A stretch of 64,000 bases of DNA, taken from positions 329,745 through 393,744 of the forward strand of contig JBAQEZ010000003.1 in the NCBI GenBank assembly GCA_049287005.1, written 5' to 3'. Both the position numbers and the translations under genes were made by a program. The stretch's first letter is position 1. The number at the start of each line of letters is the position of its first letter. Positions 21,462 to 44,735 of this stretch are shown piece by piece. The notes under the pieces are model-generated. The model was given only the letters and a program-made list of their open reading frames with translations. It ran no database searches and was not told the origin of the DNA. Source of the stretch: Candidatus Moraniibacteriota bacterium (lineage in GTDB: Bacteria > Patescibacteriota > Minisyncoccia > Moranbacterales > UBA1568).

Positions 21462-21490
21462 TTGACAATAGCATACATCAGACATATTTT
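21462..21490 (+). promoter_or_regulatory. sigma70-like promoter for rpsB-tsf (TTGACA, 17 nt, TATTTT)
   Basis: Consensus -35 at 21462-21467 and a -10 at 21485-21490. A structured ~120-nt leader with hairpins follows, including CCCGCCTAAGGCGGG. Confidence 0.55.
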
Positions 21491-21613
21491 TCCGAGGGAT
21501 CCGTTCCTGGCCTGCCCTGCAGTGCTTTCAGGATCCGTATAAGGAAGAATAGGTGGCCCATTCGGGTGATTCCCGCCTAAGGCGGGTAAATAATTCAATA
21601 AGGAAGTAAGAAT

Positions 21614-22450
21614 ATGTCGGAAACGACTCCAGCAGCAGCCGATGCAGGCGCTTCGCAAAAGGCCCCGCAAGCGGAAATAAGCGAACATTTTTTCGCTACG
21701 TTTGATTTTGCCACAATGGATGTCAGCCTGGAAGGGCTGCTCAAAGCAGGTGTCCACTTCGGTCACCTGAAGTCGCGTCGTCATCCGAAAATGGATCAAT
21801 ACATCTATACGACACGCAAGAATATCAATATCTTGGATCTCGAAAAGACATCCGAGAAACTTCGAGTAGCCGCCAAGTTCTTGGCCGAAGTGACGAAAAG
21901 CGGGAAACCGATTCTTTTTGTCGGTATGAAGAAGCAGACGCAGGATACCGTACAGTCGTTAGCTACACGCTTGGGTGAATCATATGTTATCGATCGCTGG
22001 CTCGGAGGAACACTGACGAATTTCTCCTGCATCAATTCTCGTGCGAAATACCTGAACGAAACCCATGACAAGATCGAACAGGGCGAGTTCAAGAAATACA
22101 CCAAATTCGAACAAGCCAAGAAGAATGAGGAAGTTGAGAAGCTGGAGCGGAAGGTCGGCGGTATCAAGCGTATGGGGCAGTTGCCGGGGGCCATCGTGAT
22201 CGCTGATGTCAAGGAAGCGGCACTGGTTATCCATGAGGCGAGAAAAATGCTTATCCCTGTCATTGGTATTACCGATACGAATACCGACCCGAGCTTTGTC
22301 GATTATCCTATTCCAGGGAACGATGATGCTCTTTCTTCCCTCCGTCTGCTTTTGGGATATTTGGGGAAAACTATCCTTGAAACGAAAGAGAAGGCAGTAG
22401 CTGAGAAGGCTGCAGTCAAGGAAGTAGTCAAAGAAAAAGTAGCTGAGTAA
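21614..22450 (+). CDS. rpsB: 30S ribosomal protein S2
   Basis: LLKAGVHFGH motif and S2 fold signature; RBS AGGAAG. Confidence 0.95.
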   Translation: MSETTPAAADAGASQKAPQAEISEHFFATFDFATMDVSLEGLLKAGVHFGHLKSRRHPKMDQYIYTTRKNINILDLEKTSEKLRVAAKFLAEVTKSGKPILFVGMKKQTQDTVQSLATRLGESYVIDRWLGGTLTNFSCINSRAKYLNETHDKIEQGEFKKYTKFEQAKKNEEVEKLERKVGGIKRMGQLPGAIVIADVKEAALVIHEARKMLIPVIGITDTNTDPSFVDYPIPGNDDALSSLRLLLGYLGKTILETKEKAVAEKAAVKEVVKEKVAE

Positions 22451-22521
22451 TTTTTTGTGGGGCGTTCGTTTGGACTCTCCCGCTAAGAAGCTCCAAGCTA
22501 ATCAGCTAAAAAGCTAAAATT

Positions 22522-23106
22522 ATGAGCTCGATGGAACAAGTGAAGATGCTGCGCGAAAAGACCGGCGCTGGCATCGTTGATGTGAAAAAAGCTTTGGATG
22601 AAGCAAACTATGACGAGGCACAAGCTCTTCTCATCCTTCGGAAACGTGGTCAAGATAAGGCGTTGAAGAAAAGCGATCGGGAGGCACACGAGGGCATTAT
22701 TGTTTCTTATATCCACTCGAATGATCATATCGGCGTTCTGATGAAGCTTTTCTGCGAAACGGATTTTGTGGCTCGTAACGAAGAATTTCGTGAGCTGGGT
22801 CGTGATATCGCTTTGCATATCGCTGCCTCCGCGCCACGGTACGTGAAGCCGGAAGAGGTGCCGGAAGTATCAGTGGAAAAAGAGCGTGAGATTTGGCGCG
22901 AACAGCTTGTCAAAGAGAACAAGCCGCAAGAGCTGATGGAAAAAATTATGGCCGGAAAAGAGGAGAAATTCCGGAACGAAAACGCTCTTTTGACACAGGT
23001 TTTTGTCAAAGATCCGAATAAGACTGTCGGGGAATTGTTGACTGAAAAGATTCAGAAGATCGGAGAAAATATCCAGATAGGCGGATTTGTTCGCTACGAA
23101 ATGTAG
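22522..23106 (+). CDS. tsf: elongation factor Ts (short form, 194 aa)
   Basis: MLREKTGAGIVDVKKAL (UBA-like N-terminus) and TDFVARN core. No SD; an AGCTA-repeat motif precedes it. Confidence 0.9.
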   Translation: MSSMEQVKMLREKTGAGIVDVKKALDEANYDEAQALLILRKRGQDKALKKSDREAHEGIIVSYIHSNDHIGVLMKLFCETDFVARNEEFRELGRDIALHIAASAPRYVKPEEVPEVSVEKEREIWREQLVKENKPQELMEKIMAGKEEKFRNENALLTQVFVKDPNKTVGELLTEKIQKIGENIQIGGFVRYEM

Positions 23107-23174
23107 GCGTTGTCATTGCGCTTGGAATTCCGTCACTCCTTAGGAATTATAATCGACCCTCTTATTCAAGTTCC

Positions 23175-23897
23175 ATGTGGTATCTCATCATCCCACCAAT
23201 CGTCGTTGTCGTCAGTTTGTCATTTGTGTTGTGGTACCTGTCTCGTAAAGGAGCTGATCCGTCGGTCGTGAGAAAGATTTCTCAGTTAGCGGGTGGTGTT
23301 GAACAGAAGGTGTCTTTTTTCCGCACCAAAAATTTTTTTCTGCGTATTTTGGAAAAAACAGCCCATCGTTTCAAGATTTTGTTCCTTCAGATGCACAATA
23401 CTTTGAATGATTTGACGCAGTTACTGAAAGAACGGCGGAGACGCTTTCAAGAAAAAGATGGTACGGTAGCCCTGAAGGCTCCTGGAGCAGCTTCTGCGCA
23501 TGAGGTGGTGTCGGAAAGTCCGCAGCCCCTCCTCCGTTCGCAGGCTGTGGCAATTGCTGGAATGAAGCGGTTTGTTCAGCCTGTACCGACAACAAGACTC
23601 GAGGCGACGGAAGCCGTGTCTCGTCCGATGGTGAGTGAAACGATGGTTCATCCGGAAGAGTCTTATCATAAGACGTCGGCAGACGTTGTCCACGAAGATG
23701 GTCTGATCGCGCGTATCGCCGTCAATCCCAAGGATTTTGTCGCCTATGAGGAGCTGGGTGACCATTATCTCAAAATTGGAAACATGAAAGACGCGAAAGA
23801 ATGTTACCGGCAAGTGCTCAAATTGAGCTCGGTTCAGCGTATGGCGAAGATCAAAATCCGTCGTCTGGAAAAAATGCTTTTGCAGAAAGAACAATAG
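23175..23897 (+). CDS. hypothetical membrane-anchored protein with C-terminal TPR-like repeat
   Basis: N-terminal TM (LIIPPIVVVVSLSFVLWYL). The C-terminus YEELGDHYLKIGNMKDAKECYRQVLKL is TPR-like. Confidence 0.45.
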   Translation: MWYLIIPPIVVVVSLSFVLWYLSRKGADPSVVRKISQLAGGVEQKVSFFRTKNFFLRILEKTAHRFKILFLQMHNTLNDLTQLLKERRRRFQEKDGTVALKAPGAASAHEVVSESPQPLLRSQAVAIAGMKRFVQPVPTTRLEATEAVSRPMVSETMVHPEESYHKTSADVVHEDGLIARIAVNPKDFVAYEELGDHYLKIGNMKDAKECYRQVLKLSSVQRMAKIKIRRLEKMLLQKEQ

Positions 23898-23904
23898 AGA
23901 GATG

Positions 23905-23977
23905 GCCACCTTAGCTCAGTTGGTAGAGCAACGCACTTGTAATGCGTGGGTCCTCGGTTCGAGTCCGAGAGGTGGCT
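23905..23977 (+). tRNA. tRNA-Thr (anticodon TGT)
   Basis: Manual fold: 7-bp acceptor GCCACCT/AGGTGGC, D-arm GCTCAGTTGGTAGAGC, anticodon loop CTTGTAA, T-loop TTCGAGT. Confidence 0.85.
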
Positions 23978-24031
23978 CAGTTTGAATAAAAGAGACGAGT
24001 TTGATAGGATGTGGTAGTCCTTTGTAAATAT

Positions 24032-24114
24032 GGGTAGGTGGTAGAGTGGTCTATTACAACAGACTGTAAATCTGTCGGCTTCGGCCTTCGGGGGTTCGAA
24101 TCCCTCCCTACCCA
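24032..24114 (+). tRNA. tRNA-Tyr (anticodon GTA) with long variable arm
   Basis: Acceptor GGGTAGG/CCTACCC, anticodon loop CTGTAAA, long variable arm, T-loop TTCGAAT. Confidence 0.8.
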
Positions 24115-24121
24115 CAAAAAT

Positions 24122-24151
24122 GAAAACAACTCCCGCAAGGGGGTTGTTTTC
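24122..24151 (+). terminator. rho-independent terminator after the tRNA-Thr/tRNA-Tyr pair
   Basis: GAAAACAACTCCCGCAAGGGGGTTGTTTTC hairpin. Confidence 0.7.
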
Positions 24152-24164
24152 ATTTGGGTAGGAG

Positions 24165-24298
24165 GAAGCCAACTGCTTGGCTTCCGAGAGGGATGAGAAG
24201 GCCGGAACGCTGTACGAGTTTGCCCATAGGGCAAGGCGAGTACCGTGAGGCGGGGTCGCGAAATTTTTCCGTCAGGAAAAATATTTGTGACCGAATCC
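24165..24298 (+). ncRNA. candidate structured RNA / repeat element, copy A
   Basis: Begins with hairpin GAAGCCAA-CTGC-TTGGCTTC, shares the block GTGAGGCGGGGTCGCGA with copy B, has a second hairpin ATTTTTCC-GTCA-GGAAAAAT, and ends TTGTGACCGAATCC. The terminal motif recurs at 24414-24430. Confidence 0.4.
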
Positions 24299-24497
24299 AT
24301 GTTAACGTGAAGGGCGTGAGTAGAAAGCGAGCGAGCGCAGCTTTCTGTGTGTAGCGCCAAGGCTCCGCGTCGGAGCGCGGAGGAATCCCTCTCGCTTACT
24401 GTTAGCAAATTATCTGTGACCGAATCCATTCCGCTGGACTTTTTCGTGAAAATCCTTACAATAGAAAAGTCACCGGAAGTAGATTTTTATTGAAACC

Positions 24498-24944
24498 ATG
24501 CAATTCAAAAAGAAACTTGTTTTTGAAACAGAATATTGGCGTGTTGGTTTGGCTGAAGAACAGACGTATCTTGGCTATTGTGTAGTTGCTTTGAAAAGGC
24601 AGGAAGGATTAAGGGGAGATTTGGTGGATCTTACACAAGAGGAGGCTATTGATTTTTTCAATGTGGTGAAGAAGTTTGAGGTAGCTCTTCGCGGCGCTTT
24701 TGATGCAACGATGTTTAATTGGTCCTGTCTCATGAACAATGCGTACCAGTTGCCGGATCCAAAACCACATGTTCATTGGCACGTGAAGCCACGATATAAT
24801 CATTCAGTTGAATTCGAAGGAGAGACCTTTGAAGATGTGAGATTCGGCCACCATTACACATTACTTGAAAATCTCAATCGGACGGTATCTGAGGAAGTGC
24901 AAGAAAAGATTATTGCAAAGATACAAGAGAGTTTGCCGTTGTAG
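24498..24944 (+). CDS. HIT (histidine triad) family hydrolase
   Basis: HVHWHV histidine-triad motif and HIT-like N-terminus. Its TAG stop lies inside the 5' end of the following tRNA-Thr gene. Confidence 0.75.
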   Translation: MQFKKKLVFETEYWRVGLAEEQTYLGYCVVALKRQEGLRGDLVDLTQEEAIDFFNVVKKFEVALRGAFDATMFNWSCLMNNAYQLPDPKPHVHWHVKPRYNHSVEFEGETFEDVRFGHHYTLLENLNRTVSEEVQEKIIAKIQESLPL

Positions 24945-25008
24945 CTCAGTTGGTAGAGCACGTCATTGGTAATGACGAGGTCATCGGTTCAATCCCGATC
25001 AACGGCTC
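24936..25008 (+). tRNA. tRNA-Thr (anticodon GGT)
   Basis: Acceptor GCCGTTG/CAACGGC, anticodon loop TTGGTAA, T-loop TTCAATC. Confidence 0.85.
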
Positions 25009-25187
25009 AAATAAGAGCAGAGGAGTGTTGATCATGTCGCTCGTCCGTCACGTCATTCGAGCAACGATAGTGACAAGTTGGGCGACAGAGTATTGACCAC
25101 GTCGTTCGCGAGCGACGGTGGTTGACGAAAGCAGTGTTTTCCAGTACAGTGAAAAAGCTTTGTAAACAGCTAGCAATCGAGAGGAAT

Positions 25188-25349
25188 ATGGGACAGATAA
25201 AAGATACGATAGTAAAACTCAAGTGTTCTCTGTGTAGCCGTATCACGCATTACACGAAACGCAATAAGAAAAAAGTGAAAGAAAAGCTTGCGCTCAGCAA
25301 ATATTGCCGTTTCTGTCAGAAGAACGCACCTCACACCGAGAGCAAATAG
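25188..25349 (+). CDS. rpmG: 50S ribosomal protein L33 (zinc-ribbon type)
   Basis: MGQIKDTIVKLKCSLCSRITHYTKRNKKKVKEKLALSKYCRFCQKNAPH has the L33 pattern with four Cys. Start reassigned to the internal ATG. Confidence 0.85.
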   Translation: MGQIKDTIVKLKCSLCSRITHYTKRNKKKVKEKLALSKYCRFCQKNAPHTESK

Positions 25350-25426
25350 TTCTCGGTTTTTGGTAATTTTGGTATAATGAATGTGGTTATGTAAGTTGTA
25401 TAACTTATAGTCACTATTCGTTATTT

Positions 25427-26077
25427 ATGTTGAGAGTAGAAGTAAAAGAAAAAGCGACTGCTCTGCGAGAACAGGGGTATTCGCTTAGTGAAATAAGTCA
25501 ACAGTTAAGTATTTCACAAAGTACCGCCAGCTTGTGGTTGAGGGGCATCAAACTATCTGAGAAAGCCAGGGGAAGAATAGATAGTCTGAGTGTTAGTGGA
25601 AGAAAAAAGGCTGTTGAGACAAATAGAAAAAAAAGAGCGGTAGAGGATATAGAAATAGCAGAAAAAGTAGAGAGGTATTTCTTGGGGCAACAAAAAATAG
25701 ATTCTAAAATTGCATGTGCTTTGTTATACTGGGGTGAAGGAACGAAGTATAGTGGCAATAAGTCTGTTTCTTTCATGAATGCGGATCCAGAAATGATAGG
25801 ATATTTTCTCCGTGCCTTCAGAAACTCCTTTTCTCTAGATGAAAAGAGGCTTAGGGCACTTATCCATTTGCATGAGTATCATGATGCGGACAAACAACTT
25901 AAATTTTGGTCAAATATAACAAAGATTCCCACCAGTCAATTCAATAAATCGTATCTCAAGAAGAACACGGGTAAGAGCGAAAAGGAAAATTATCCAGGCT
26001 GTATCAGCATTAGGTACTCTGATAATAAAGTCTATAAAGAATTGATGCTTATTATAGGAAAACTAGCGAAGATATAA
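25427..26077 (+). CDS. hypothetical HTH-domain protein (216 aa), low GC
   Basis: N-terminal HTH (GYSLSEISQQLSISQSTASLWLRG). Codon usage is visibly more AT-rich than neighbouring genes. It is inserted between rpmG and tRNA-Trp. Confidence 0.5.
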   Translation: MLRVEVKEKATALREQGYSLSEISQQLSISQSTASLWLRGIKLSEKARGRIDSLSVSGRKKAVETNRKKRAVEDIEIAEKVERYFLGQQKIDSKIACALLYWGEGTKYSGNKSVSFMNADPEMIGYFLRAFRNSFSLDEKRLRALIHLHEYHDADKQLKFWSNITKIPTSQFNKSYLKKNTGKSEKENYPGCISIRYSDNKVYKELMLIIGKLAKI

Positions 26078-26085
26078 AATAGAAT

Positions 26086-26156
26086 GCGAGTGTAGTTTAA
26101 CGGTAGAACAGCGGCCTCCAAATCCGCTAGCGAAGGTCCGACTCCTTCCACTCGTG
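26086..26156 (+). tRNA. tRNA-Trp (anticodon CCA)
   Basis: Acceptor GCGAGTG/CACTCGT, anticodon loop CTCCAAA. The T-loop TCCGACT has C at position 55. Confidence 0.75.
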
Positions 26157-26202
26157 CTAGAAATCATTTGGTATTTGTCATTTGAATTTTGATATTTCAA
26201 AT

Positions 26203-26274
26203 GGCCCTATCGTCTATCGGCTAGGACGCCAGGTTCTCATCCTGGTAAGAGGGGTCCGACTCCCCTTAGGGCTA
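26203..26274 (+). tRNA. tRNA-Glu (anticodon CTC)
   Basis: Close to E. coli tRNA-Glu in architecture: 3-bp D-stem GTC/GAC, anticodon loop TTCTCAT, T-arm AGGGG-TCCGACT-CCCCT, acceptor GGCCCTA/TAGGGCT. Confidence 0.75.
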
Positions 26275-26296
26275 CAACGAAGTTGAAGACATAAAA

Positions 26297-26406
26297 CACG
26301 CCAACTGCTTGGCGTGTGTGGGGATGTCGAAAGCCGGAGCGATGCCGCAAGGCTGCGAGGCGGGGTCGCGAGCCATACGTCTCGTATGGACTTGTGACCG
26401 ACTCTC
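26297..26406 (+). ncRNA. candidate structured RNA / repeat element, copy B
   Basis: Hairpin CACGCCAA-CTGC-TTGGCGTG has the same loop as copy A with different stem bases. It shares the block GAGGCGGGGTCGCGA, has a second hairpin CCATACG-TCTC-GTATGG, and ends TTGTGACCGACTCTC. It is bracketed by direct repeats of TAGGGCTACAACGAAG at 26267-26282 and 26407-26422. Confidence 0.4.
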
Positions 26407-26448
26407 TAGGGCTACAACGAAGAACCCTCCTTCAGGCCACATGTTTTT

Positions 26449-26478
26449 TTGACACAAAAGGTACTCTCCTGGTATCTT
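26449..26478 (+). promoter_or_regulatory. candidate promoter for purD (TTGACA, 18 nt, TATCTT)
   Basis: -35 at 26449-26454 and a -10-like hexamer at 26473-26478. Confidence 0.35.
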
Positions 26479-26556
26479 TTCTTATCAAGCCGATTCCAAA
26501 GTAATGTGGCTTGATTGGGTTCTTGAACAATATGCCATCGACAAGGAGAGAATGCT

Positions 26557-27885
26557 ATGAAGAGGATACCGGAACAGCAACGAAAGCCTTTGAGCAGAAT
26601 ATTGGTTATCGGTAGCGGTGGCCGTGAACATGCCATCGCGTGGAAACTGGCGCAAAGCCCAGAAGTGGAAGCGGTGTATGTCGCGTCCGGCAATGTTGGA
26701 ACGGCAAGGGAGCCGAAGGTACAGAATATTCCCATTACCGACATTGCGCTCCTCGCGGATTTTGCAGCGCAGAACAGTATCGATGTGACGGTGGTAGGAC
26801 CTGAAGCGCCATTGGTAGCGGGCATCGTGGATCTGTTTCGCGACCGTGGTCTGAAGATTTTTGGTCCGACGCAAGCAGCGGCGCAATTGGAATCCTCCAA
26901 GACTTTCGCGAAGCGTTTCATGAACCGTTGTCATATACCGACTGCGGACTACTGCGAATTCGCTTCCGCGGCATTGGCACATACCTACCTTGTCAGTCGG
27001 TCTCTTGACGATCTGCCGATTGTGGTCAAGGCCGATTGGTTGGCTGCGGGCAAAGGGGTGGTAGTCGCCAAGAGCCACCGTGAGGCGCACGACGCAGTCG
27101 ACATGCTTTTTGCCGCTACGACTGTGCCGGATCAGGAGAAACGGATCATCATCGAAAACTGCATTGCCGGCACGGAGGCGAGTTACATCGTCATGGTTGA
27201 TGGTCGGAATGTTTTGGCATTGGTGACGAGCCAGGATCATAAACGCCTCCTCGACGACAACAGGGGATTGAATACCGGCGGTATGGGAGCGATTTCTCCT
27301 GCGCCTATCATCACGTCTGCTATGAATACGCGCGTCATGCATGAAATTATCATGCCTGCGGTGCACAGAATGGCCGACGAAGGTATCCCGTACACCGGAT
27401 TTCTCTACGCGGGGCTGATGATCGATGCCGAGAACAACCCATATGTACTCGAGTTCAACTGTCGCCTTGGCGATCCGGAAACGGAAGTGATCCTGATGCG
27501 CTTACGGAGCGATCTGTATCCGCTCATCAGGCACGGCGCGAATGGCACGCTGGATTTGGCGAATGCGGAGTGGGATGATCGCGTAGCGCTCGGCGTCGTG
27601 CTGGCAGCTGCCGGTTATCCAGATAAACCGCGCAAGGGGGATCCAATTTCCGGGTTGCCGCGGGAAACCCCTGACTGCAAAGTCTTCCATGCCGGTACCG
27701 CCGAAGCGGGCGACAAGCTCGTTACGGCGGGCGGGCGCGTGTTGTGCGTGACGGTGCTTGGCGACGATATCGGCGATGCGCGGAGGCGAGCTTACGAAGC
27801 GGTGAAAACCGTTCACTTCGCAGGGGTGCAATACCGGAAAGACATCGGCAAATGTGCTTTGGCGGCAGCCGCTGATGTCAACTAA
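26557..27885 (+). CDS. purD: phosphoribosylamine--glycine ligase
   Basis: VLVIGSGGREHAIAWKLAQS N-terminus and an ATP-grasp core (GFLYAGLMI, EFNCRLGDPE). Confidence 0.9.
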   Translation: MKRIPEQQRKPLSRILVIGSGGREHAIAWKLAQSPEVEAVYVASGNVGTAREPKVQNIPITDIALLADFAAQNSIDVTVVGPEAPLVAGIVDLFRDRGLKIFGPTQAAAQLESSKTFAKRFMNRCHIPTADYCEFASAALAHTYLVSRSLDDLPIVVKADWLAAGKGVVVAKSHREAHDAVDMLFAATTVPDQEKRIIIENCIAGTEASYIVMVDGRNVLALVTSQDHKRLLDDNRGLNTGGMGAISPAPIITSAMNTRVMHEIIMPAVHRMADEGIPYTGFLYAGLMIDAENNPYVLEFNCRLGDPETEVILMRLRSDLYPLIRHGANGTLDLANAEWDDRVALGVVLAAAGYPDKPRKGDPISGLPRETPDCKVFHAGTAEAGDKLVTAGGRVLCVTVLGDDIGDARRRAYEAVKTVHFAGVQYRKDIGKCALAAAADVN

Positions 27886-28069
27886 GCGATTGGCAATGTC
27901 GTGACGGATTCCGTTGCGCAAGGGCGGGAGGTGGTAATATGCACCTTTCGCCCGATTTTTTTATACGATTCTTCCTTTTTGACAAAGAGGCCGTGAAGCC
28001 CTATCCTGTAAAGCTGGCTTTGAGCTGGTTTTCGTCCGTTAACAACCGAAAGAGAAAGCGAGGTCTGGA

Positions 28070-28963
28070 ATGACGACATTTCGGGAGCTGCTCCAAATGC
28101 AGTGGCACGCAAGGAAATTCGTCTGCCAGAGGCTCGTCGGTTATCCCGGCAATGGGCCGCAGGTGGAAAAATTCTGGAATGATAGCGATGAAAACGGAAG
28201 GATTGACGCCGCCAATATCACAATCGTGGAAGCGACCAGCGATATTGTTGGTTCCTACGCGTTGAACCTTGCCTTCTACATCGCGCACGGCGACGAGGGT
28301 ATGCATGCTTTGCGCCAGACTGCCTGGTATATTCGTTCCATCGCACCAGAAATTCTTATCATTCTCGACACCATGGATGTCGGCAATACTGATGCCGGCT
28401 CTGTGCGTATGGTATTTGAGTATTGCCAAGCAGACGCTATCATAGTGAATCCCTACCGCGGTATGGAAGCCGCGCAGCCCTTTCTGGATCAGAAAGACAA
28501 AGGTATTATCGTGCTCTGTCGCACGAGTACCGCAGGCGCAAGTGAGTTTCAGGATCTGATTGTGGGCGTTCCTGAAGGTAGCATCGAACCGCTTGTAGGG
28601 AGAGTCGGATCCGAAGTTCCAAAAACCATGCCGCTGTGGGAATATGTGGCGCATAGGGTATCACGGAATTGGAACGGGAATGGCAATTGTGCGCTCGTCG
28701 TCGGAGCTACGTATCCCCAAGAGCTCTCTCAAGTTCGAAGGATTGCCGGTGATATGCCGATGCTTATCCAGGATATCGGCTTTCGTGATGAAGACGTAGA
28801 AAAAACCGTCACAGCGAGTCAGGACAGTCGCGGCCAAGGGATAATCATCAATTCCCGCGGCAGTATATTCGTCATGAAAGGCTGGGATTTCGCTGAAGCG
28901 GCTCGTTCTGACGCGGAAAAGCTCCATAAGCTGATCAACCGATACTCACAAGAAGGAACTTAA
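28070..28963 (+). CDS. orotidine-5'-phosphate decarboxylase-fold protein (type-2 OMPDC-like paralog), atypical active site
   Basis: TIM-barrel OMPDC-like layout. ILDTMDVGNT stands where the catalytic LDxKxGDIGxT would be, with Met in place of the Lys. Ends NSRGSIFVMKG. Confidence 0.45.
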   Translation: MTTFRELLQMQWHARKFVCQRLVGYPGNGPQVEKFWNDSDENGRIDAANITIVEATSDIVGSYALNLAFYIAHGDEGMHALRQTAWYIRSIAPEILIILDTMDVGNTDAGSVRMVFEYCQADAIIVNPYRGMEAAQPFLDQKDKGIIVLCRTSTAGASEFQDLIVGVPEGSIEPLVGRVGSEVPKTMPLWEYVAHRVSRNWNGNGNCALVVGATYPQELSQVRRIAGDMPMLIQDIGFRDEDVEKTVTASQDSRGQGIIINSRGSIFVMKGWDFAEAARSDAEKLHKLINRYSQEGT

Positions 28964-29028
28964 ATATCGAGCAACCAGAAATCGATGATTCATCAACGCA
29001 GGTCCCTTGAACAGAAAAGGAAAAAGAC

Positions 29029-29823
29029 ATGAAAGCATATCCTTATGCAGATCGTTTGATCGTTGCGGCAGACTTTGTCCCGGTGACTAAATTCCCCGTT
29101 GTTGAAGTTCGCGCGAAGGTCATGAGCTTGGCCGAGCAGCTTGAAGGTCTCGGCGTCGGCTTGAAGCTGAATTCCGGTCTCCGAGTCATGGGCTATGATG
29201 TGCTGCGCGATATCACCTCGCTGGGATTGCACGGATTCGCTGACCTCAAGATCGTGGATATCGAAGAAACCATGGCAACTGACGGCAAATTTCTTGCTCA
29301 TTATCAGCCGCGTTACTTGACGGTGATGTGCAATGCCGGTGCTGTGGCGATTCGCGCCATCGCGAAGGAACTACCGAGTACGCGTGTCATCGGCGTCACC
29401 GTTCCCACCAATTGGGACGAAGCGACATGTCAGGGAGTTTATGGTTGCAGTATCCAAGAGGCAGTGATCCGTCTCGCAGGGATTGCCGCGGATGCTGATT
29501 TGCGCGACATCGTCCTCGCCGCCAAGGAAAACCAAGCAGTCCTGAAGTATGGAATTCTCGAGGGAGACAAATTCAAGCATCTCTGCTGCAACAACCCTGC
29601 CATACGTCCGGAATGGGGCAGGGTGAAACGCGACGATCAAGATCCGAAACGCGTTTCTACCGTCACGGGCGCTTTGCAAGCTGGCGCGCAGCGGCTCATC
29701 GTGGGGCGACCGATACTGACTGCGGTGAAGAATAATGAAGGGCTGCCGCAGAGTCCGAGGGAAGCGGTCATCAGAATCCTCGAAGAGATACATCAGTTTG
29801 TTGTTGAAGACAAGACATCCTGA
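29029..29823 (+). CDS. orotidine-5'-phosphate decarboxylase family protein (type 1)
   Basis: LIVAADF N-terminus, DLKIVDIEETM (DxKxxDI motif) and C-terminal LIVGRPI are the OMPDC signatures. Confidence 0.65.
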   Translation: MKAYPYADRLIVAADFVPVTKFPVVEVRAKVMSLAEQLEGLGVGLKLNSGLRVMGYDVLRDITSLGLHGFADLKIVDIEETMATDGKFLAHYQPRYLTVMCNAGAVAIRAIAKELPSTRVIGVTVPTNWDEATCQGVYGCSIQEAVIRLAGIAADADLRDIVLAAKENQAVLKYGILEGDKFKHLCCNNPAIRPEWGRVKRDDQDPKRVSTVTGALQAGAQRLIVGRPILTAVKNNEGLPQSPREAVIRILEEIHQFVVEDKTS

Positions 29824-29849
29824 AACCGACACGAACGAAAGGAAGTCCC

Positions 29850-30593
29850 ATGAGTATCAAGAAACCAGAAATTGTTTTAGGCGATGTTATCGCGACACTG
29901 AGACGCTGCGATGGGGTATACGAATGCCCGATGAGCACGGAAGGGAAACCTCTTGGCCCGCTGGTCGGTTATGCCGGCCAATACGAAGAGGGCGGAAAAC
30001 TCCTGAATTATGTGGGGTTCGTCTACTACAACGTCGGGAAGGGCGACCAGTGGTCGCATATCTCTTCGGGTTGGGCTATGCGTCATGCTCAGCTCCTGAC
30101 CAAGTATTCGCTTGATGTGTTGGTCGCTGCGCCGATGGGCGGTATCTCCTACATGTCGGTCCTCAAGCTCTATATTGATTGTTGCCGTGGCATCTTTGCC
30201 GAAAAGAAGGTGATCGAAGCGGCACAAGAGGGTAAACGGGAGAAATCCAAGCTCATTCTCGGCAGGTATGACATTTGCGAAGGCGATCGGGTTATCCTGC
30301 TCGAGGACATCGTCAATAACTTCTCGACGACGAAGCAGATGATCGAGCTTGTGGAAAATGCCGGCGGAAAAGTGCAGGCTATCGCTTGCGTGATCAATCG
30401 TTCTCTCAAGACCACGTACTGGGAGGCGCCTGCAAGAGATCCTCTTCCTGTCATCTGTTTGGAACACAGGCCGACGCCGCAATACCGGCAAGACGACCCG
30501 GTTGTGGCGGAATATATCGCTGTCGGAAACGTCATCATGAAGCCGAAAGACCGCTGGGCAGAACTGGTCGCAGCAGAAGCGGCATATGCCTGA
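29850..30593 (+). CDS. phosphoribosyltransferase (type I PRTase)-like protein, divergent
   Basis: RVILLEDIVNNFSTTKQMIELV resembles the PRPP-binding hhhhDD..TTG.T motif but lacks the Gly; follows the OMPDC paralogs. Confidence 0.45.
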   Translation: MSIKKPEIVLGDVIATLRRCDGVYECPMSTEGKPLGPLVGYAGQYEEGGKLLNYVGFVYYNVGKGDQWSHISSGWAMRHAQLLTKYSLDVLVAAPMGGISYMSVLKLYIDCCRGIFAEKKVIEAAQEGKREKSKLILGRYDICEGDRVILLEDIVNNFSTTKQMIELVENAGGKVQAIACVINRSLKTTYWEAPARDPLPVICLEHRPTPQYRQDDPVVAEYIAVGNVIMKPKDRWAELVAAEAAYA

Positions 30594-30756
30594 TTCTCAC
30601 GGACGGGACTGACAAAAGGGTACCGAGTGCATCGCACCACGGACCCTGTTTTTTTACCAAAAAATGCTGATACGAGTTATGATATACTTTATATATAATG
30701 ACTTTTATTTTTTCTTAAGCTAAAAAGCTACCAGCTAATCGCTATAAGCTACCCAT

Positions 30757-31470
30757 ATGTCCACTCTTATTTTTGATATCGAGACGGTCGGGGAGGATTT
30801 TGATAGCTTGGATGAGACCAGCCAAGATGTTTTGACGCGCTGGATCAAGAAGGAATCGGAGAGCGGAGGGGATTATACGGCGGCACTGGCGGATCTGAAA
30901 AACGGCATGGGCTTTTCGCCGCTCACCGGACAGATCGTGGCGATCGGCATCTATGACGCGGAGCGTGAGAAAGGCGCCGTTTATTTCCAATCGTCTTCCC
31001 AGGAGGAAGAAAAAAGTCTTGAGGGGCATGGCTGTAAATTGGTAGTGATGACGGAGAAAGAGATGCTGCGGAAATTTTGGAGCGTCGTGGAAAAGTATGA
31101 GACGTTCGTGACGTTCAACGGTCGGCAATTCGATGTGCCGTTCCTGATGGTGCGTTCGGCCATCCACGGCATCCGTCCAAGCAAGAATCTGCTCTCCAAT
31201 CGCTATCTCAATTCTCAACCAGGCAATGCGCGCCACATTGATCTCTTTGATCAGCTGACGTTTTATGGAGCCATGCGCAAGAAGGGGGGTCTGCATCTGT
31301 GGTGCCGGGCCTTCGGCATCGAAAGTCCGAAAACGCAGGGCGTGGATGGCGATGACGTGAAGGCGCTTTTTGAGAACGGCCAGAGCGCGGACATCGCTCG
31401 CTACAATGCCAGGGATCTGCGGGCCACGTACGAACTCTATACGTATTACACGCGTTTTCTCCAATTTTGA
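30757..31470 (+). CDS. DEDDy-type 3'-5' exonuclease (DnaQ/RNase T superfamily, PolB-exo/YprB-like)
   Basis: Exo I motif IFDIETVG, an internal acidic motif, and a C-terminal YNARDLRATYELY (Yx3D) motif. Confidence 0.65.
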   Translation: MSTLIFDIETVGEDFDSLDETSQDVLTRWIKKESESGGDYTAALADLKNGMGFSPLTGQIVAIGIYDAEREKGAVYFQSSSQEEEKSLEGHGCKLVVMTEKEMLRKFWSVVEKYETFVTFNGRQFDVPFLMVRSAIHGIRPSKNLLSNRYLNSQPGNARHIDLFDQLTFYGAMRKKGGLHLWCRAFGIESPKTQGVDGDDVKALFENGQSADIARYNARDLRATYELYTYYTRFLQF

Positions 31471-31552
31471 TCTTTGGGTTATTTCTCTTGTTTTTGGCTT
31501 TTTTTCTTGGTATACTTTCAATCATGTTCCGAATGATAGTAAACAATACGGT

Positions 31553-32629
31553 ATGCAAATTGAGAACGAATTAAAGGCTTTCAAGGCACGTCTCGATCCG
31601 AAAATCGGGGCGTATTTTGATACGGCGATTGCAAGAACGGGCAAAGAAGACGTGTTCGTAGCAGCTACCCTGGAGTATTCGCGCACCTTTATCCTCGCTG
31701 GCGGAAAGCGGCTGCGGGCAGCTTTCATGTACTATGGGTATCTGGGAGCGGGTGGCACCGAAGAGGAAAAAATCCTGGAGACTTCCATGAGCATCGAGTT
31801 GATCCATGCGTTCCTGCTCGTACATGATGATATCATCGACAAGGACGATACGCGGCACGGTGTGGCCACGCTCCATCAGCACTATGCGGACGCGGGGAAG
31901 CTCTTGTTTCATGGAAAGGATAACGCGCACTTCGGCAATGCTATAGCGATCATCATCGGCGATATGCTGGGCGCGTTCGGCAATGACATTATTTTTTCTT
32001 CCGCTTTTCCCTTGGAACAAAAATTCAAAGCGCTTACGAAACTTCAAGATATCGTTTCTTTCACCGTTATCGGGCAGGCGCAGGATGTCTATATGGAATA
32101 CATGGGTGAGGCGAGCGAAGCAGCCATCCTGGCCATGTATAGGAATAAGACGGCCAAGTACACTGTCGAGGGGCCGCTCTATCTTGGCGCGCTGCTCGCC
32201 GGAGCCTCTCAGGATCTGCTTGACGGATTCTCGGCGTATGCGGTACCGTTGGGTATCGCCTTTCAGATTCAGGACGATATTCTGGGGACTTTCGGCAATG
32301 CGAAGCGGCTCGGCAAGCCCGTCGGCTCTGACATCGCCGAGGGCAAGATCACGCTGCTGGTATCTCGGGCACTGCGGGATGGAACGGCAGAGCAAAAAAA
32401 ACGGATCCACGCGCTGCTTTCCCTGGGAGAACATCTCGAACAGCGGGACATAGAGGAATTCCGAGATATTATACGGGTGACGGGCGCTTTCGACAGTACT
32501 CGGGAGCTGGCAGCAGCATATATTGAAGAAGGCAAGCAGGCTCTCGGTGCGATACGCGCTATCTTGGATCCGCGCGCGTATGACTTTCTTTTTTCCATCG
32601 CAGAGTATATGATGGAACGTGAATATTGA
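31553..32629 (+). CDS. polyprenyl diphosphate synthase (trans-isoprenyl diphosphate synthase, IspA/GGPPS family)
   Basis: First Asp-rich motif LLVHDDIIDKDD and second FQIQDDILG. Start moved to the ATG at 31553 to remove overlap with the exonuclease gene. Confidence 0.85.
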   Translation: MQIENELKAFKARLDPKIGAYFDTAIARTGKEDVFVAATLEYSRTFILAGGKRLRAAFMYYGYLGAGGTEEEKILETSMSIELIHAFLLVHDDIIDKDDTRHGVATLHQHYADAGKLLFHGKDNAHFGNAIAIIIGDMLGAFGNDIIFSSAFPLEQKFKALTKLQDIVSFTVIGQAQDVYMEYMGEASEAAILAMYRNKTAKYTVEGPLYLGALLAGASQDLLDGFSAYAVPLGIAFQIQDDILGTFGNAKRLGKPVGSDIAEGKITLLVSRALRDGTAEQKKRIHALLSLGEHLEQRDIEEFRDIIRVTGAFDSTRELAAAYIEEGKQALGAIRAILDPRAYDFLFSIAEYMMEREY

Positions 32630-32641
32630 TTTTTCGCAACT

Positions 32642-33370
32642 ATGTCTTATCAGGAACCGACAACCGCACCAGTGGAGCTCCCACACCATATAGTCATCAT
32701 CCCGGATGGTAACCGGAGATGGGCGACTGAGCGTGGATTGGCAGCATGGGAGGGTCATGAGGCAGGAGCGAAAAATACGGAGAAGCTTATCCGTGCAGCA
32801 CAGCGTTTGGGTGTCAAGGAGATTTCTTTTTGGGGATCATCTTTGGAAAATCTCGTGAAGCGCCCCGTCCTCGAGAGCAAGGCTCTACTTCGTATTTATG
32901 GAACGTATTTCAAGCAGTTGTTGGAAAGCGAGGACATTCACAAGGACGAGGTCCGGATCCGTTTTATCGGGAGGTGGGAGGAACAATTTCCGGCCACGCT
33001 GAAGAAAATCATGCACGATTGCATTGAAGCGACCAAAAATTATAACAAGCGTTTCCTGAATTTTCTGTTGGCCTACAGCGGAGATGATGACATGCGCCAA
33101 GCCATCCAAAGGATAGCCGCAAGTCTCCCCGCTGGAGACACAGTGACAGACGCGGTCATCAAAGAAAACTTGATGACCAGGGATCTCCCGCCAGTCGACC
33201 TTCTGATTCGTACTGGGAGAGAACCCCATCTTTCGGCTGGTTTCATGATGTGGGATATAGCCAATACCCAGCTGTATTTTTCCGAGAAATATTACCCGGA
33301 TTTTGATGAGGCGGCTTTGCAGGAGGCTTTGGCTGATTATGCTTTGCGAGGGCGGCGTTTCGGGAAATAA
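32642..33370 (+). CDS. uppS: isoprenyl transferase (undecaprenyl diphosphate synthase, cis-prenyltransferase)
   Basis: HIVIIPDGNRRWA and the C-terminal RFG motif. Confidence 0.9.
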   Translation: MSYQEPTTAPVELPHHIVIIPDGNRRWATERGLAAWEGHEAGAKNTEKLIRAAQRLGVKEISFWGSSLENLVKRPVLESKALLRIYGTYFKQLLESEDIHKDEVRIRFIGRWEEQFPATLKKIMHDCIEATKNYNKRFLNFLLAYSGDDDMRQAIQRIAASLPAGDTVTDAVIKENLMTRDLPPVDLLIRTGREPHLSAGFMMWDIANTQLYFSEKYYPDFDEAALQEALADYALRGRRFGK

Positions 33371-33443
33371 ATTTTCTTGACAGGGAACCGGCCTTCCTGT
33401 AATCAAGAGATACGGTATTTCCCGTGTCATCTTGGAGGAAAAA

Positions 33444-33659
33444 ATGTCCGATGGAAAACAATACTTGCTTGAATGCGAACCGAGAGTTGCCGCTGCCGTG
33501 AAGATGGCGATTGAAGCGGGCGGAGCGCAAGGTCTTCGACAGTTGATCGACGACGAGACGGGATTCAGGGTTTTTCTTTTTCGTGGTTCATTCAAAGACG
33601 TGATGTCTGCCCGTATGGCGGGCGCACGGAGCGTGTGTTCTCTCGAATCGGAAGATTAG
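33444..33659 (+). CDS. small hypothetical protein (71 aa)
   Basis: GGAGGA RBS in front of the ATG at 33444; no recognisable domain. Confidence 0.35.
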   Translation: MSDGKQYLLECEPRVAAAVKMAIEAGGAQGLRQLIDDETGFRVFLFRGSFKDVMSARMAGARSVCSLESED

Positions 33660-33888
33660 CCCCTGAGGGTGGTTCAGCCAATGGCTAGCCAACCCTCACA
33701 TCAACTCAAAATGATGATGACAGAGAGTCCCGTAAGACCTGTCAGCTATGTTTGAAGCAGATCCACCGCTACCGCTTGATCTCGCGCGAATCCAGGGAAA
33801 ATCGGTCCTGATGACGCGATATCGGGCATAGCCGCCTACCGGCTTGCGCTTGCCGTTTCCGAGAACTGTTGCAAGAATTAGCGCGGGG

Positions 33889-33917
33889 TTGACAAAAATC
33901 CGAAGCTCGTCTAGAAT
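33889..33917 (+). promoter_or_regulatory. sigma70-like promoter for the infA-rpmJ-rpsM operon (TTGACA, 17 nt, TAGAAT)
   Basis: Consensus -35 at 33889-33894 and TAGAAT at 33912-33917. The ~155-nt leader contains the hairpin CTCCTCT...AGAGGAG followed by a T-run at 34008-34047. Confidence 0.55.
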
Positions 33918-34078
33918 AAGACTACATTTTGAAAAATTGCAGAGATTCAGAAGAAGAGTAACCATCAGCCGTATTTCACGAACGAGGATTGCTTACCAGA
34001 AACAAAACTCCTCTTTTTTTCGTTGTTAAAGCCAGAGGAGATTTTTTAGATTCTGAACATTGTACAGAGAAGCAATAT

Positions 34079-34300
34079 ATGGGAAATGACAAGGAGCTGA
34101 TCAAGGTTGAGGGGGAAGTTTTAGAAACTTTGCCCAGCACCACTTTCCGCGTGCGTCTCGACAATGGTCACGAAGTTCTGGCTCATATTTCTGGCCGCAT
34201 GCGTGTCCATTATATTCGGCTTTTGCCGGGAGATCGCGTAACGCTCGAAATGAGTCCTTATGATCTGTCCAAAGGGAGAATTATATTGCGCAATAAATAA
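34079..34300 (+). CDS. infA: translation initiation factor IF-1
   Basis: [58 protein letters not shown] is canonical IF-1. Confidence 0.95.
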
Positions 34301-34315
34301 ACATTACGAGAGTGT

Positions 34316-34429
34316 ATGAAAGTAAGAGCTTCAGTGAAAAAAATTTGTGTCCACTGCAAAATCGTCAAGCGTCGCGGTAAGGTGTTTGTCATTTGTATCA
34401 CTCCCAAGCATAAGCAGCGCCAGGGCTAA
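34316..34429 (+). CDS. rpmJ: 50S ribosomal protein L36
   Basis: [37 protein letters not shown] with the L36 zinc-ribbon pattern. It is too short to appear in the ORF track. Confidence 0.9.
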
Positions 34430-34449
34430 TAAAACAATCTTGTTTCAAT

Positions 34450-34839
34450 ATGATAAGAATTGCCGGAATTAACCTTCCAGATAACAAGAGAATAGAGGTC
34501 GCGCTGACCTATATTTATGGCATTGGTCTTTCTACAAGCCAAAAGATTCTCGAGGAGTTGACGATCGATGTCGATACTCGCGCGAAAGATATCACCGCTG
34601 AAGACGCGAACCGTTTGCGTGAAGTGATCGAGAAAAAGTTTCGCGTCGAAGGAGAGCTCCGGCATGTCGTCAAAAACAATATCAAGCGTTTGAAAGAAAT
34701 CGGCTGTTATCGCGGGACTCGCCATCAGAAGGGACTTCCTTCCCGTGGGCAGCGGACCAAGACCAATACGCGGACAGTGCGCGGTAACACCCGTAAGACG
34801 ATGGGTAGCGGACGGAAGAAATCATCTGACAAGACATAG
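34450..34839 (+). CDS. rpsM: 30S ribosomal protein S13
   Basis: [26 protein letters not shown] matches S13. Confidence 0.95.
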
Positions 34840-34940
34840 GACGGCTTCTTAGGTGGGTAGCTCGTAGCTTGTAGGGAAACCGAAAGGCAAGAGTGTTCCG
34901 CTAAAAAGCTAATAAGCTAAAAAGCTACACGCAGATAACT

Positions 34941-35387
34941 ATGGAAGAAGAAGTAAAAAAAACTGAAGATACGGGAGTCGCTCCAGAAGCTCCGGTCGGC
35001 GAAACGGCGGCTGTGAAAAAGACCAAGAAATCGAAACGTCAAGTTTTGAAAGGACGGGCGAGTATTCAGTGTACCTATAACAATACGATTATCACGATTG
35101 CTGATCTGAATGGTGCTGTTTTGGGCTGGTCTAGCTCCGGTCACTTGAGTTTCAAAGGTGCCAAGAAGTCGACTCCTTATGCGGCAACGCAAGTAGTCGC
35201 GGATGTCGCCGAGAAAGTGAAGAAATACGGTCTCCAGGAATTGGAAGTATTCGTGAAGGGTGTCGGTAGCGGGCGTGAAGCCTCGATCCGTGCTTTGTCC
35301 AACAACGGATTCAATCTGACCGGTATCAAAGATATTACGCCTATTCCGCACAATGGTTGTCGTCCACGTCGTCCACGTCGTATTTAA
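34941..35387 (+). CDS. rpsK: 30S ribosomal protein S11
   Basis: S11 core (ASIQCTYNNTIITIADLNG...GFNLTGIKDITPIPHNGCRP). Preceded by an AGCTA-repeat motif with no SD. Confidence 0.95.
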   Translation: MEEEVKKTEDTGVAPEAPVGETAAVKKTKKSKRQVLKGRASIQCTYNNTIITIADLNGAVLGWSSSGHLSFKGAKKSTPYAATQVVADVAEKVKKYGLQELEVFVKGVGSGREASIRALSNNGFNLTGIKDITPIPHNGCRPRRPRRI

Positions 35388-35418
35388 GACAGCCTTGAGC
35401 TGTTAGCTAAGAAAAACT

Positions 35419-36051
35419 ATGCCAAACAATATTGATTCCAAATGCAAACTCTGTCGCCGCGCCGGGGAAAAACTCTTTCTCAAGGGAGATCGTTGTTTGT
35501 CACCGAAATGTGCCATGGTACGCCGTCCGTATGCCCCGGGCATCCATGGTCACACTCCATCCCGTGGCGGTAGCGAATTCGGCAGACAGCTTGCGATGAA
35601 GCAGAAAATCAAGCGTCTCTACGGCGTGATGGAGCGTCAGTTCCGTCATCATTTTGATGAGGTACGCAAGACTCCTGGTATCACCGGCGATCAGCTCATC
35701 TCTCGTTTGGAACGACGGTTGGACAACGTGGTGTACCGGCTGGGATTCGCTGCTTCTCGCGCTCAGGCCAAGCAGCTCGTGAGTCACAAGATGTTTTCAG
35801 TGAATGGCACGCGTGTCAATATTCCTTCCTACGAAATCCGCGTCAACGATGTCATTACGCTGAAGGACAATAAGAAGGAAAAACAATTCTTCAAGAATCA
35901 GGAAGAAATTTTGAAAAATAAGAAAGATGTTCCTCATTGGTTGGCACTCGATGCCGAGAAGCAGACGGGGAGAGTGCTCTCTATGCCGGCTCGGGAAGAT
36001 GTCGGTGTCCGAGTGGACGCACAGATGGTTGTCGAATATTACTCGAAATAA
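35419..36051 (+). CDS. rpsD: 30S ribosomal protein S4
   Basis: N-terminal zinc ribbon CKLCRR...CLSPKC and the S4 domain. Confidence 0.95.
   Translation: MPNNIDSKCKLCRRAGEKLFLKGDRCLSPKCAMVRRPYAPGIHGHTPSRGGSEFGRQLAMKQKIKRLYGVMERQFRHHFDEVRKTPGITGDQLISRLERRLDNVVYRLGFAASRAQAKQLVSHKMFSVNGTRVNIPSYEIRVNDVITLKDNKKEKQFFKNQEEILKNKKDVPHWLALDAEKQTGRVLSMPAREDVGVRVDAQMVVEYYSK

Positions 36052-43236: not shown

Positions 43237-44735
<1,499 letters not shown>

Follow-up and report, generated by a model that had tools for sequence, protein, structure and literature searches.

Tandem AAGCTAAn octamers before start codons without a Shine-Dalgarno sequence: a candidate leader element of CPR bacteria

What are tandem AAGCTAAn octamers doing directly upstream of start codons that have no Shine-Dalgarno (SD) sequence? 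The question is raised by a 64,000-nucleotide stretch of contig JBAQEZ010000003.1 (assembly GCA_049287005.1) from a Candidatus Moraniibacteriota bacterium, called the window below, in which the genes for elongation factor Ts (tsf), ribosomal protein S11 (rpsK) and a 3'-5' exonuclease each follow such an array. The candidate phyla radiation (CPR), or Patescibacteria, makes up a huge and almost uncultivated share of bacterial diversity, and its gene expression is essentially unstudied. A conserved, positionally constrained repeat before ribosomal protein and factor genes offers a testable way into how these organisms initiate translation without an SD or regulate genes through their leaders. Judged by sequence comparison, the arrays appear to be a dispersed, fast-evolving tandem octamer, (AAGCTAAn)3-8, characteristic of CPR bacteria. 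Our preferred reading, which we hold tentatively and with somewhat less than even confidence, is that they are a transcribed cis-acting element of leaders and intercistronic spacers that would modulate either the initiation of translation or the fate of the mRNA at highly expressed genes that have no SD.

In the window, the AAGCTAAn units stand head-to-tail on the coding strand with a period of 8 nt, sometimes 7. Three genes, all on the + strand, carry four to five AGCTA/GCTA units each, and the arrays end 5-13 nt 5' of the ATG. The array of tsf (22522-23106; EF-Ts, 194 aa; Pfam PF00889) spans 22481-22516 with the units CGCTAAGA, AGCTCCA, AGCTAATC, AGCTAAAA and AGCTA. Its cores are CGCTA at 22481, AGCTC at 22489 and AGCTA at 22496, 22504 and 22512, and the T of the last AGCT lies at -7 from the ATG at 22522. 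The exonuclease gene (30757-31470; PolB-exo-like, 237 aa; Pfam PF10108 (DNA_pol_B_exo2), PF13482 (RNase_H_2) and PF03104) is preceded at 30717-30751 by the units AAGCTAAA, AAGCTACC, AGCTAAT, CGCTATA and AGCTA; here AGCTA occurs at 30718, 30726, 30733 and 30747 and CGCTA at 30740, the last T again being at -7 from the ATG at 30757. This array fills the last 40 nt, the gene-proximal end, of a 163-nt spacer. Upstream of rpsK (34941-35387; S11, 148 aa; Pfam PF00411), the units CGCTAAAA, AGCTAATA, AGCTAAAA and AGCTA occupy 34899-34927, with CGCTA at 34899 and AGCTA at 34907, 34915 and 34923; the ATG is at 34941 and the last T at -15.

The original prediction had listed a fourth locus, rpsD (35419-36051, + strand; S4, 210 aa; Pfam PF00163 and PF01479). 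The sequences it quoted are in place at all four loci, and cluster statistics bear out the first three, but the rpsD site (35398-35409, + strand) is a weak two-unit copy, AGCTGTT and AGCTA, that is not significant alone; its AGCTG at 35398 and AGCTA at 35405 leave the last T at -11 from the ATG at 35419. Clusters of at least three AGCTA spaced 6-10 nt apart number three on the + strand of the window and none on the - strand, and 300 first-order Markov simulations of the window produced none (mean 0.0). With at most one mismatch, AGCTANNNAGCTA has 10 matches in the window, compared with 1.7 expected. Tandem Repeats Finder reports a period of 8 at 22495-22519 (tsf, 3.1 copies) and at 34900-34927 (rpsK, 3.5 copies). 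A restriction-modification or methylation signal at AGCT was considered and rejected, as the tetramer is not avoided in the window (observed/expected 0.93).

Does the array take the place of an SD sequence? At -18 to -4, all four genes are without an SD 4-mer, in line with the original prediction's remark that they have no SD. The contrast it drew with other genes holds only in part. The gene rpsB and four genes at 26557-30593 do have classical sites (AAGGA/GGAG/GAGG), yet an SD 4-mer is present in that interval at only about 18 of the window's 57 open reading frame starts (8 in the control region), so being SD-less is the norm and not peculiar to the array genes. The array marks three of about 39 SD-less genes, or only about 5% of all genes; most genes have neither an SD nor an array. 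SD-less starts in the window are typically A-rich with T at -1 (aaaattATG, aaaaagtATG), and TATAAT-like boxes lie 40-55 nt upstream of several of them, which makes those several genes leadered.

An SD ribosome-binding site works by pairing with the anti-SD (CCUCC) in the 3' tail of 16S rRNA. The array resembles it as a short, purine-rich, sense-strand element; an SD lies 5-10 nt upstream of the start codon and the array 5-13 nt (last AGCT at -7, -15 and -11). It differs in being repeated three to eight times at 8-nt spacing and in having no complementarity to 16S. The window's own 16S gene (43238-44734) has the canonical 3' end ...CACCUCCUUUCUAGGG (...GAAUCACCUCCUUUCUAGGG) with a canonical anti-SD, and nowhere carries a sequence complementary to the unit (TTAGCT, TAGCTT and TTAGC are all missing). 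Computed duplex energies for the unit against 16S give nothing at the 3' tail or at an accessible loop; the best duplexes fall within internal helices. SD-like pairing was rejected on these two results. Nor is an SD gained where the array is missing: the rpsM-rpsK spacer in 80 relatives almost never has an SD, array or not. The implied replacement of the SD by the motif thus fails for want of a 16S complement, because other SD-less genes have no array, and because orthologues in close relatives have neither.

Another comparison is with SD-independent, A-rich ('Kozak-like') initiation regions of Bacteroidota and cyanobacteria, and with S1-dependent A/U-rich enhancers or standby sites. The likeness is an A-rich element directly upstream of AUG in an SD-poor genome: the A content at -30 to -1 is 47-50% for tsf and rpsK, compared with typically 20-40% for other window genes. 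The A-rich signals known elsewhere are compositional and position-specific. Here, by contrast, an 8-mer with a GCU core is conserved and repeated, and predicted accessibility is unremarkable.

Is the element confined to this window? A scan with AGCTAANNAGCTAANNAGCTA of one genome per species (GTDB) found at least 119 loci. About 43 of the matches listed come from named CPR lineages, namely Peribacteria/Peregrinibacteria, Parcubacteria groups, Nomura-, Buchanan-, Specht-, Dojka- and Roizmanbacteria, 'Saccharibacteria' and Gracilibacteria/Altimarinota. To the CPR-type set we added seven loci with the same array architecture that are labelled 'bacterium', 'Gammaproteobacteria' or 'Bdellovibrionales' (L015, L049, L062, L079, L091, L101 and L005, where L denotes a comparison locus). 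The CPR share of the listed matches is far above the CPR share of sequenced bases, the latter being a rough estimate. Most non-CPR matches listed are plain microsatellites or palindromic AGCTAATT arrays of Bacteroidota; these arrays (L007, L008, L013, L067, L115 and others) consist of three AGCTAATT copies, read identically on both strands and look unrelated to the CPR element.

Among the matches listed, to which the counts for CPR copies given below also refer, one architecture recurs at about 55 CPR loci: three to eight units, usually starting with a pseudo-unit yCTAAnA, in sense orientation just 5' of an ATG. The genes behind them serve mostly translation and housekeeping (S13, S3, L22, L6, L21, L2, L14, S21, EF-G, MreB, HrcA, NusB, SSB, NrdR, CysS, FolD, AtpE, FtsE and others). 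The element is intergenic and multi-copy, with three copies in the window and two to five per 8-kb locus in L054, L064, L069 and L093. A second sample of about 455 kb was picked by S11 homology and is blind to the motif. Its seven distinct arrays of at least three units are all in sense orientation, and each stops 8-18 nt short of the ATG of rpsM, rpsK or rpsD. The original prediction had named as its undoing a dispersed repeat unrelated to gene starts. A dispersed repeat family it is, but one tied tightly to gene starts in the S11 sample.

Full-text literature searches, including the Peribacteria genome paper (PMC4736985) and a paper on Borg elements (PMC9879509), returned no description of the element or of its architecture. 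Rfam 15 gave no match at gathering thresholds anywhere in the window, and none overlapping an array up to E = 5 in 22300-35600. None of the 12 tRNA genes in the loci is preceded by a sense array, too few tRNAs to tell a promoter from a translation role.

Where the arrays stop is not random. The T of the last AGCT lies exactly at -7 in 14 of about 46 CPR cases, so that the array most often ends 5 nt before the ATG, with smaller groups at -6, -8, -1, -10 and -13 to -16. Across the proximal three units the 8-nt periodicity is strict. Such regularity is what one might expect of a multimeric platform for a sequence-specific CPR protein, bound on RNA in the manner of TRAP or CsrA or on DNA as an operator between promoter and ATG, that would co-regulate genes for the translation apparatus and growth. 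Both TRAP (the trp RNA-binding attenuation protein) and CsrA bind arrays of sites in 5' leaders, TRAP with a period of 5-6 nt. The arrays described here likewise repeat a short motif at regular intervals in a probable leader, and their last unit (at -11 to -7) overlaps the initiation region that a 30S subunit would cover; seven fixed bases are shared by distant CPR lineages and by several loci per genome, and ribosomal proteins and factors dominate the gene set. Motif and period are different, however, and unlike a stable regulon the tsf and exonuclease arrays are not conserved in close relatives, as detailed below. The putative reader also comes without a candidate protein, and repeat families of unrelated sequence occupy equivalent positions. 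We therefore consider a protein platform unlikely.

Do the arrays lie in DNA as promoters, or in the transcript? Canonical TTGACA/TATAAT promoters are visible in this genome. The exonuclease spacer has sigma-70-like boxes that match the consensus at 30654-30699 (+ strand): TTACCA-18-TATGAT at 30654-30683 and a TATAAT (6/6 match) at 30694-30699, 18 nt upstream of the array. Full promoters stand 28-38 nt upstream of the arrays of rplU in L015 (TTGACA-17-TATACT) and hrcA in L049 (TTGACA-16-TATACT). Arrays also occur between co-directional cistrons of ribosomal protein operons. Since some arrays have a canonical promoter on their 5' side and others separate the cistrons of a single operon, they are most likely part of the mRNA leader, at these loci at least, and for the same reasons a self-sufficient promoter is unlikely.

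One form of the promoter idea deserves separate treatment. The last units could be a -10-like element (nAAGCT, with A at -11 and T at -7) for leaderless or very short-leader mRNAs, the missing SD being explained by leaderless transcripts and the inverted pairs described below being back-to-back promoters. In Actinobacteria and Deinococcus, the promoters of leaderless mRNAs have a TANNNT box whose last base is at -7 from the ATG (GeneMarkS-2 'group C'; PMC6028130; PMC4007540). The A at -11 and the T at -7 are found at tsf, at the exonuclease gene and in the 14 modal CPR cases, with no SD; every start adjacent to an array is ATG; and at L004 and L109 two divergent genes each face an outward-reading array. 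Yet the hexamer nAAGCT agrees with TATAAT at no more than two or three of six positions, and the -35 register shows no conservation. Many copies miss this geometry, including rpsK (-15), rpsD (-11) and all seven arrays of the S11 sample (-10 to -14), and in one class the T is at -1 (AAGCTATG). L015, L049 and the exonuclease locus have canonical promoters farther upstream, and arrays sit at internal positions of ribosomal protein operons with an inverted arm that faces no gene. On balance this form of the promoter idea seems very improbable. The original prediction had offered a translation enhancer, a regulator-binding site or a promoter element; what survives of these is their common core, a strand-specific cis element associated with start codons; SD replacement is unsupported and a self-sufficient promoter unlikely.

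In about half of the CPR copies, an inverted (TTAGCTTn)k and a short loop (TTAGGnnnnCCTAA) stand before the array and give a hairpin. The order is invariably 5'-TTAGCTT...AAGCTAA-3', and the arms range from two to eight units. In 17 of 19 inverted pairs the distal arm has no more units than the gene-proximal one; one or two units would therefore usually be unpaired beside the AUG. Since the inverted arm often faces no gene, for example within ribosomal protein operons, it is not simply a second signal for a divergent gene.

In the window, rpsK has such a partner. An inverted arm and stem-loop lie at 34843-34898 (+ strand) between rpsM and rpsK, with TAGCT at 34858 and 34865, and pair partly with the first array units; the predicted fold of 34840-34943 has an energy of -28.5 kcal/mol (z = -1.75). 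This stem-loop (TAGCTCGTAGCTTGTAGGGAAACCGAAAGGCAAGAG) is better conserved than the array itself (window compared with L207, L125 and, in part, L129) and may have a function of its own within the alpha-operon region. No inverted arm was found at the tsf and exonuclease copies. A predicted stem-loop at 22452-22488 (+ strand) adjoins the tsf array on its 5' side and overlaps its first unit, but it is unrelated to the repeat (predicted fold of 22451-22524, -19.4 kcal/mol, z = -1.9).

How stable are the arrays in evolution? The window's Tsf is identical to an NCBI protein annotated Candidatus Moraniibacteriota, relatives of this Tsf carry the annotation Moranbacteria, and the window matches contig JBAQNY010000010.1 of GCA_049304235.1. 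Three syntenic relatives, L203, L205 and L207, cover all four loci with Tsf identities of 88, 78 and 76%. The tsf array is absent from all three and from 19 contigs of another close population, where only the context 'aaaattATG' is kept. The tsf gene has two in-frame ATGs three codons apart at 22522-22533 (ATGAGCTCGATGGAA), and gene callers in relatives choose either, giving 194 or 191 aa. Relatives keep the first ATG together with the 'aaaatt' before it and vary in the three codons between the two ATGs.

The exonuclease-gene array is likewise absent from L203, L205 and L207. In those relatives a gene of about 115-140 aa that the window does not have precedes the exonuclease gene (the interval is 30594-30756 in the window, L203:12753-13112, L205:15472-15824 and L207:13714-14207). 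The window has the promoter-like boxes and the array in this gap, and a terminator-like sequence upstream is conserved with L205.

At rpsK the hairpin and array are common to the window and L207/L125, and recognisable but decayed in L129, L203 and L205. At rpsM and rpsD, two or three units occur in L207 or L205 and not in the window or L203; at the rpsD site, L207 has CGCTAAGAAGCTACTTACTA in the same position and L203 and L205 have none. In other relatives the rpsM-rpsK spacer holds AACTAAn heptamer arrays or unrelated repeat families. Within the population, three independent assemblies (L001-L003) are identical across the tsf array and L001 also across the exonuclease array, the only two differences lying at 24110 and 24119; this small sample thus shows no copy-number variation between strains of the kind expected of a variable-number tandem repeat (VNTR) at a contingency locus. 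To go by these alignments, arrays arise, expand, decay and disappear as species diverge. As a cis element the array is tied to gene starts, but it is neither an SD replacement nor a conserved regulon.

Such turnover raises the possibility that the arrays are neutral or selfish repeats, generated by slippage and inverted duplication or by copying of the kind seen in miniature inverted-repeat transposable elements (MITEs) and REP sequences, and found near ATGs as that is where short CPR spacers have free space. The wider architecture of these spacers lends this some weight. They are packed with 7-9-nt tandem arrays of many sequences (TTATAGACT, CAATTGT, CCCTTACAA, GCAACTA, AAGGATTA and others), often as inverted pairs whose gene-proximal arm ends 5-10 nt before an ATG; examples from CPR loci L004-L122 and L123-L207 are L064:1600-7700, L016:5259-5941, L031:6305-6377 and L179:1236-1348. 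Most spacers of the S10 ribosomal protein operon in L064 carry an array, and near-identical arms stand at two loci there, upstream of the L2 and L14 genes. By unit length, the S11 sample has 86 of 158 arrays with period 7, 17 with period 8, 15 with period 9 and 10 with period 6. The AAGCTAAn array is one prominent family of this general architecture. Gene finders and motif tools may misread arrays of period 7 or 8, which fill much of CPR intergenic space.

Besides these features, the rapid gain, loss and decay at orthologous sites favour neutral repeats, as does the lack of a structural or accessibility signal (see below). Other observations sit poorly with them. Orientation is strict, with seven of seven arrays sense in the S11 sample and inverted pairs always running T-arm then A-arm, and the phase peak at -7 is unexpected from space-filling. 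Placement is gene-proximal even in long spacers such as that of the exonuclease gene, and there is a bias towards translation genes. Finally, AGCTA-type (13 of 132) and AACTAA-type (15 of 132) arrays together make up about 20% of the arrays in the S11 sample, far above the expectation for random 7-mers, yet not dominant. We judge a neutral origin rather unlikely, though the likeliest of the rivals; if it were correct, the arrays would record an unusual mutational or copying process in reduced genomes.

Known repeat families offer partial parallels. REP/BIME, ERIC and the MITE-like Correia elements of Neisseria are multi-copy intergenic palindromic repeats, and Correia elements carry outward-facing expression signals. 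Like them, the arrays are multi-copy, intergenic, often imperfect palindromes, probably co-transcribed with their neighbours and patchy between relatives. Here, though, the arms are tandem 8-mers of variable number with no fixed element length, and many copies are solitary and non-palindromic (tsf and the exonuclease gene). No target-site duplication was seen in the flanks inspected by eye, and no search aimed at a transposase was made. The tandem repeats of Borgs are A-enriched, intergenic and fast-evolving, mostly with unit lengths not divisible by three, and have been proposed to be regulatory (PMC9879509). They share with the arrays an A-rich, fast-evolving, intergenic character, but Borg units are longer and essentially locus-unique, whereas the unit described here turns up at many loci and in different phyla, in a fixed position with respect to start codons. 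The element would belong with dispersed intergenic repeats and with SD-independent leader elements.

We return to the reading we prefer, that of a modulatory leader element. It is suggested by the strict sense orientation, by the proximity to start codons and the preferred phase, by the prominence of translation genes and by the location downstream of promoters. The array would lie on the transcript as an A-rich, SD-independent part of the translation-initiation region and act in cis, helping or tuning 30S loading on highly expressed genes in a genome that mostly initiates without SD sequences. It would probably be recognised by a protein or a ribosome surface and not by 16S pairing. Where an upstream (TTAGCTTn)k is present, it would pair with the array to form the hairpin and leave the last one or two units single-stranded; the hairpin may also insulate or stabilise the downstream cistron. 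The element would be modulatory and dispensable, and the array probably tunes expression rather than replacing the ribosome-binding site.

Several results weigh against this reading. Any effect of the array must be dispensable, because the orthologues in close relatives have neither array nor SD. Sequence-specific recognition may not matter, because many 7-9-nt families occupy the same positions. Upstream of solitary arrays, -10 boxes are not significantly enriched (20 of 37, compared with 17.1 +/- 2.7 in shuffles). When 17 inverted pairs were folded as sense and antisense RNA, the sense strand was more stable in only five, so there is no sign of selection on an RNA hairpin, and that proposal was set aside as unsupported. 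The predicted energy for opening -18 to +12 ranks the array genes 12, 16 and 31 of 57, not unusually low.

A bolder reading would see AAGCUAAn (perhaps also AACUAAn) arrays as a second 'ribosome-binding code' specific to CPR bacteria, read by a lineage-specific ribosomal or initiation component and not by the anti-SD, preferring translation-apparatus genes and spread by copying. We think it a long shot, more so than the protein platform.

Some minor observations concern neighbouring features. No 23S gene follows the 16S gene within the remaining ~19 kb of the window, which suggests that the rRNA genes are not linked. A leader some 100 nt long (~21490-21613) precedes rpsB and is conserved in the window, L203, L205 and L207 (...gttcctggcctg...cagtgctttca...aggtgg...); it has no Rfam match and may be an S2-type autoregulatory leader. 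In viral contigs there were 60 matches, mostly unrelated microsatellites or coding repeats, with no clear CPR-phage signal. One phage family (IMG/VR; L227, L243, L259, L260 and L262) has (AGCTAACA)3-4 preceded by a hairpin and followed by a canonical AAGGAG SD. The gene behind it is conserved and encodes MVKVVEKVVTNKVRF..., 171 aa where the open reading frame is complete, in an SD-using context.

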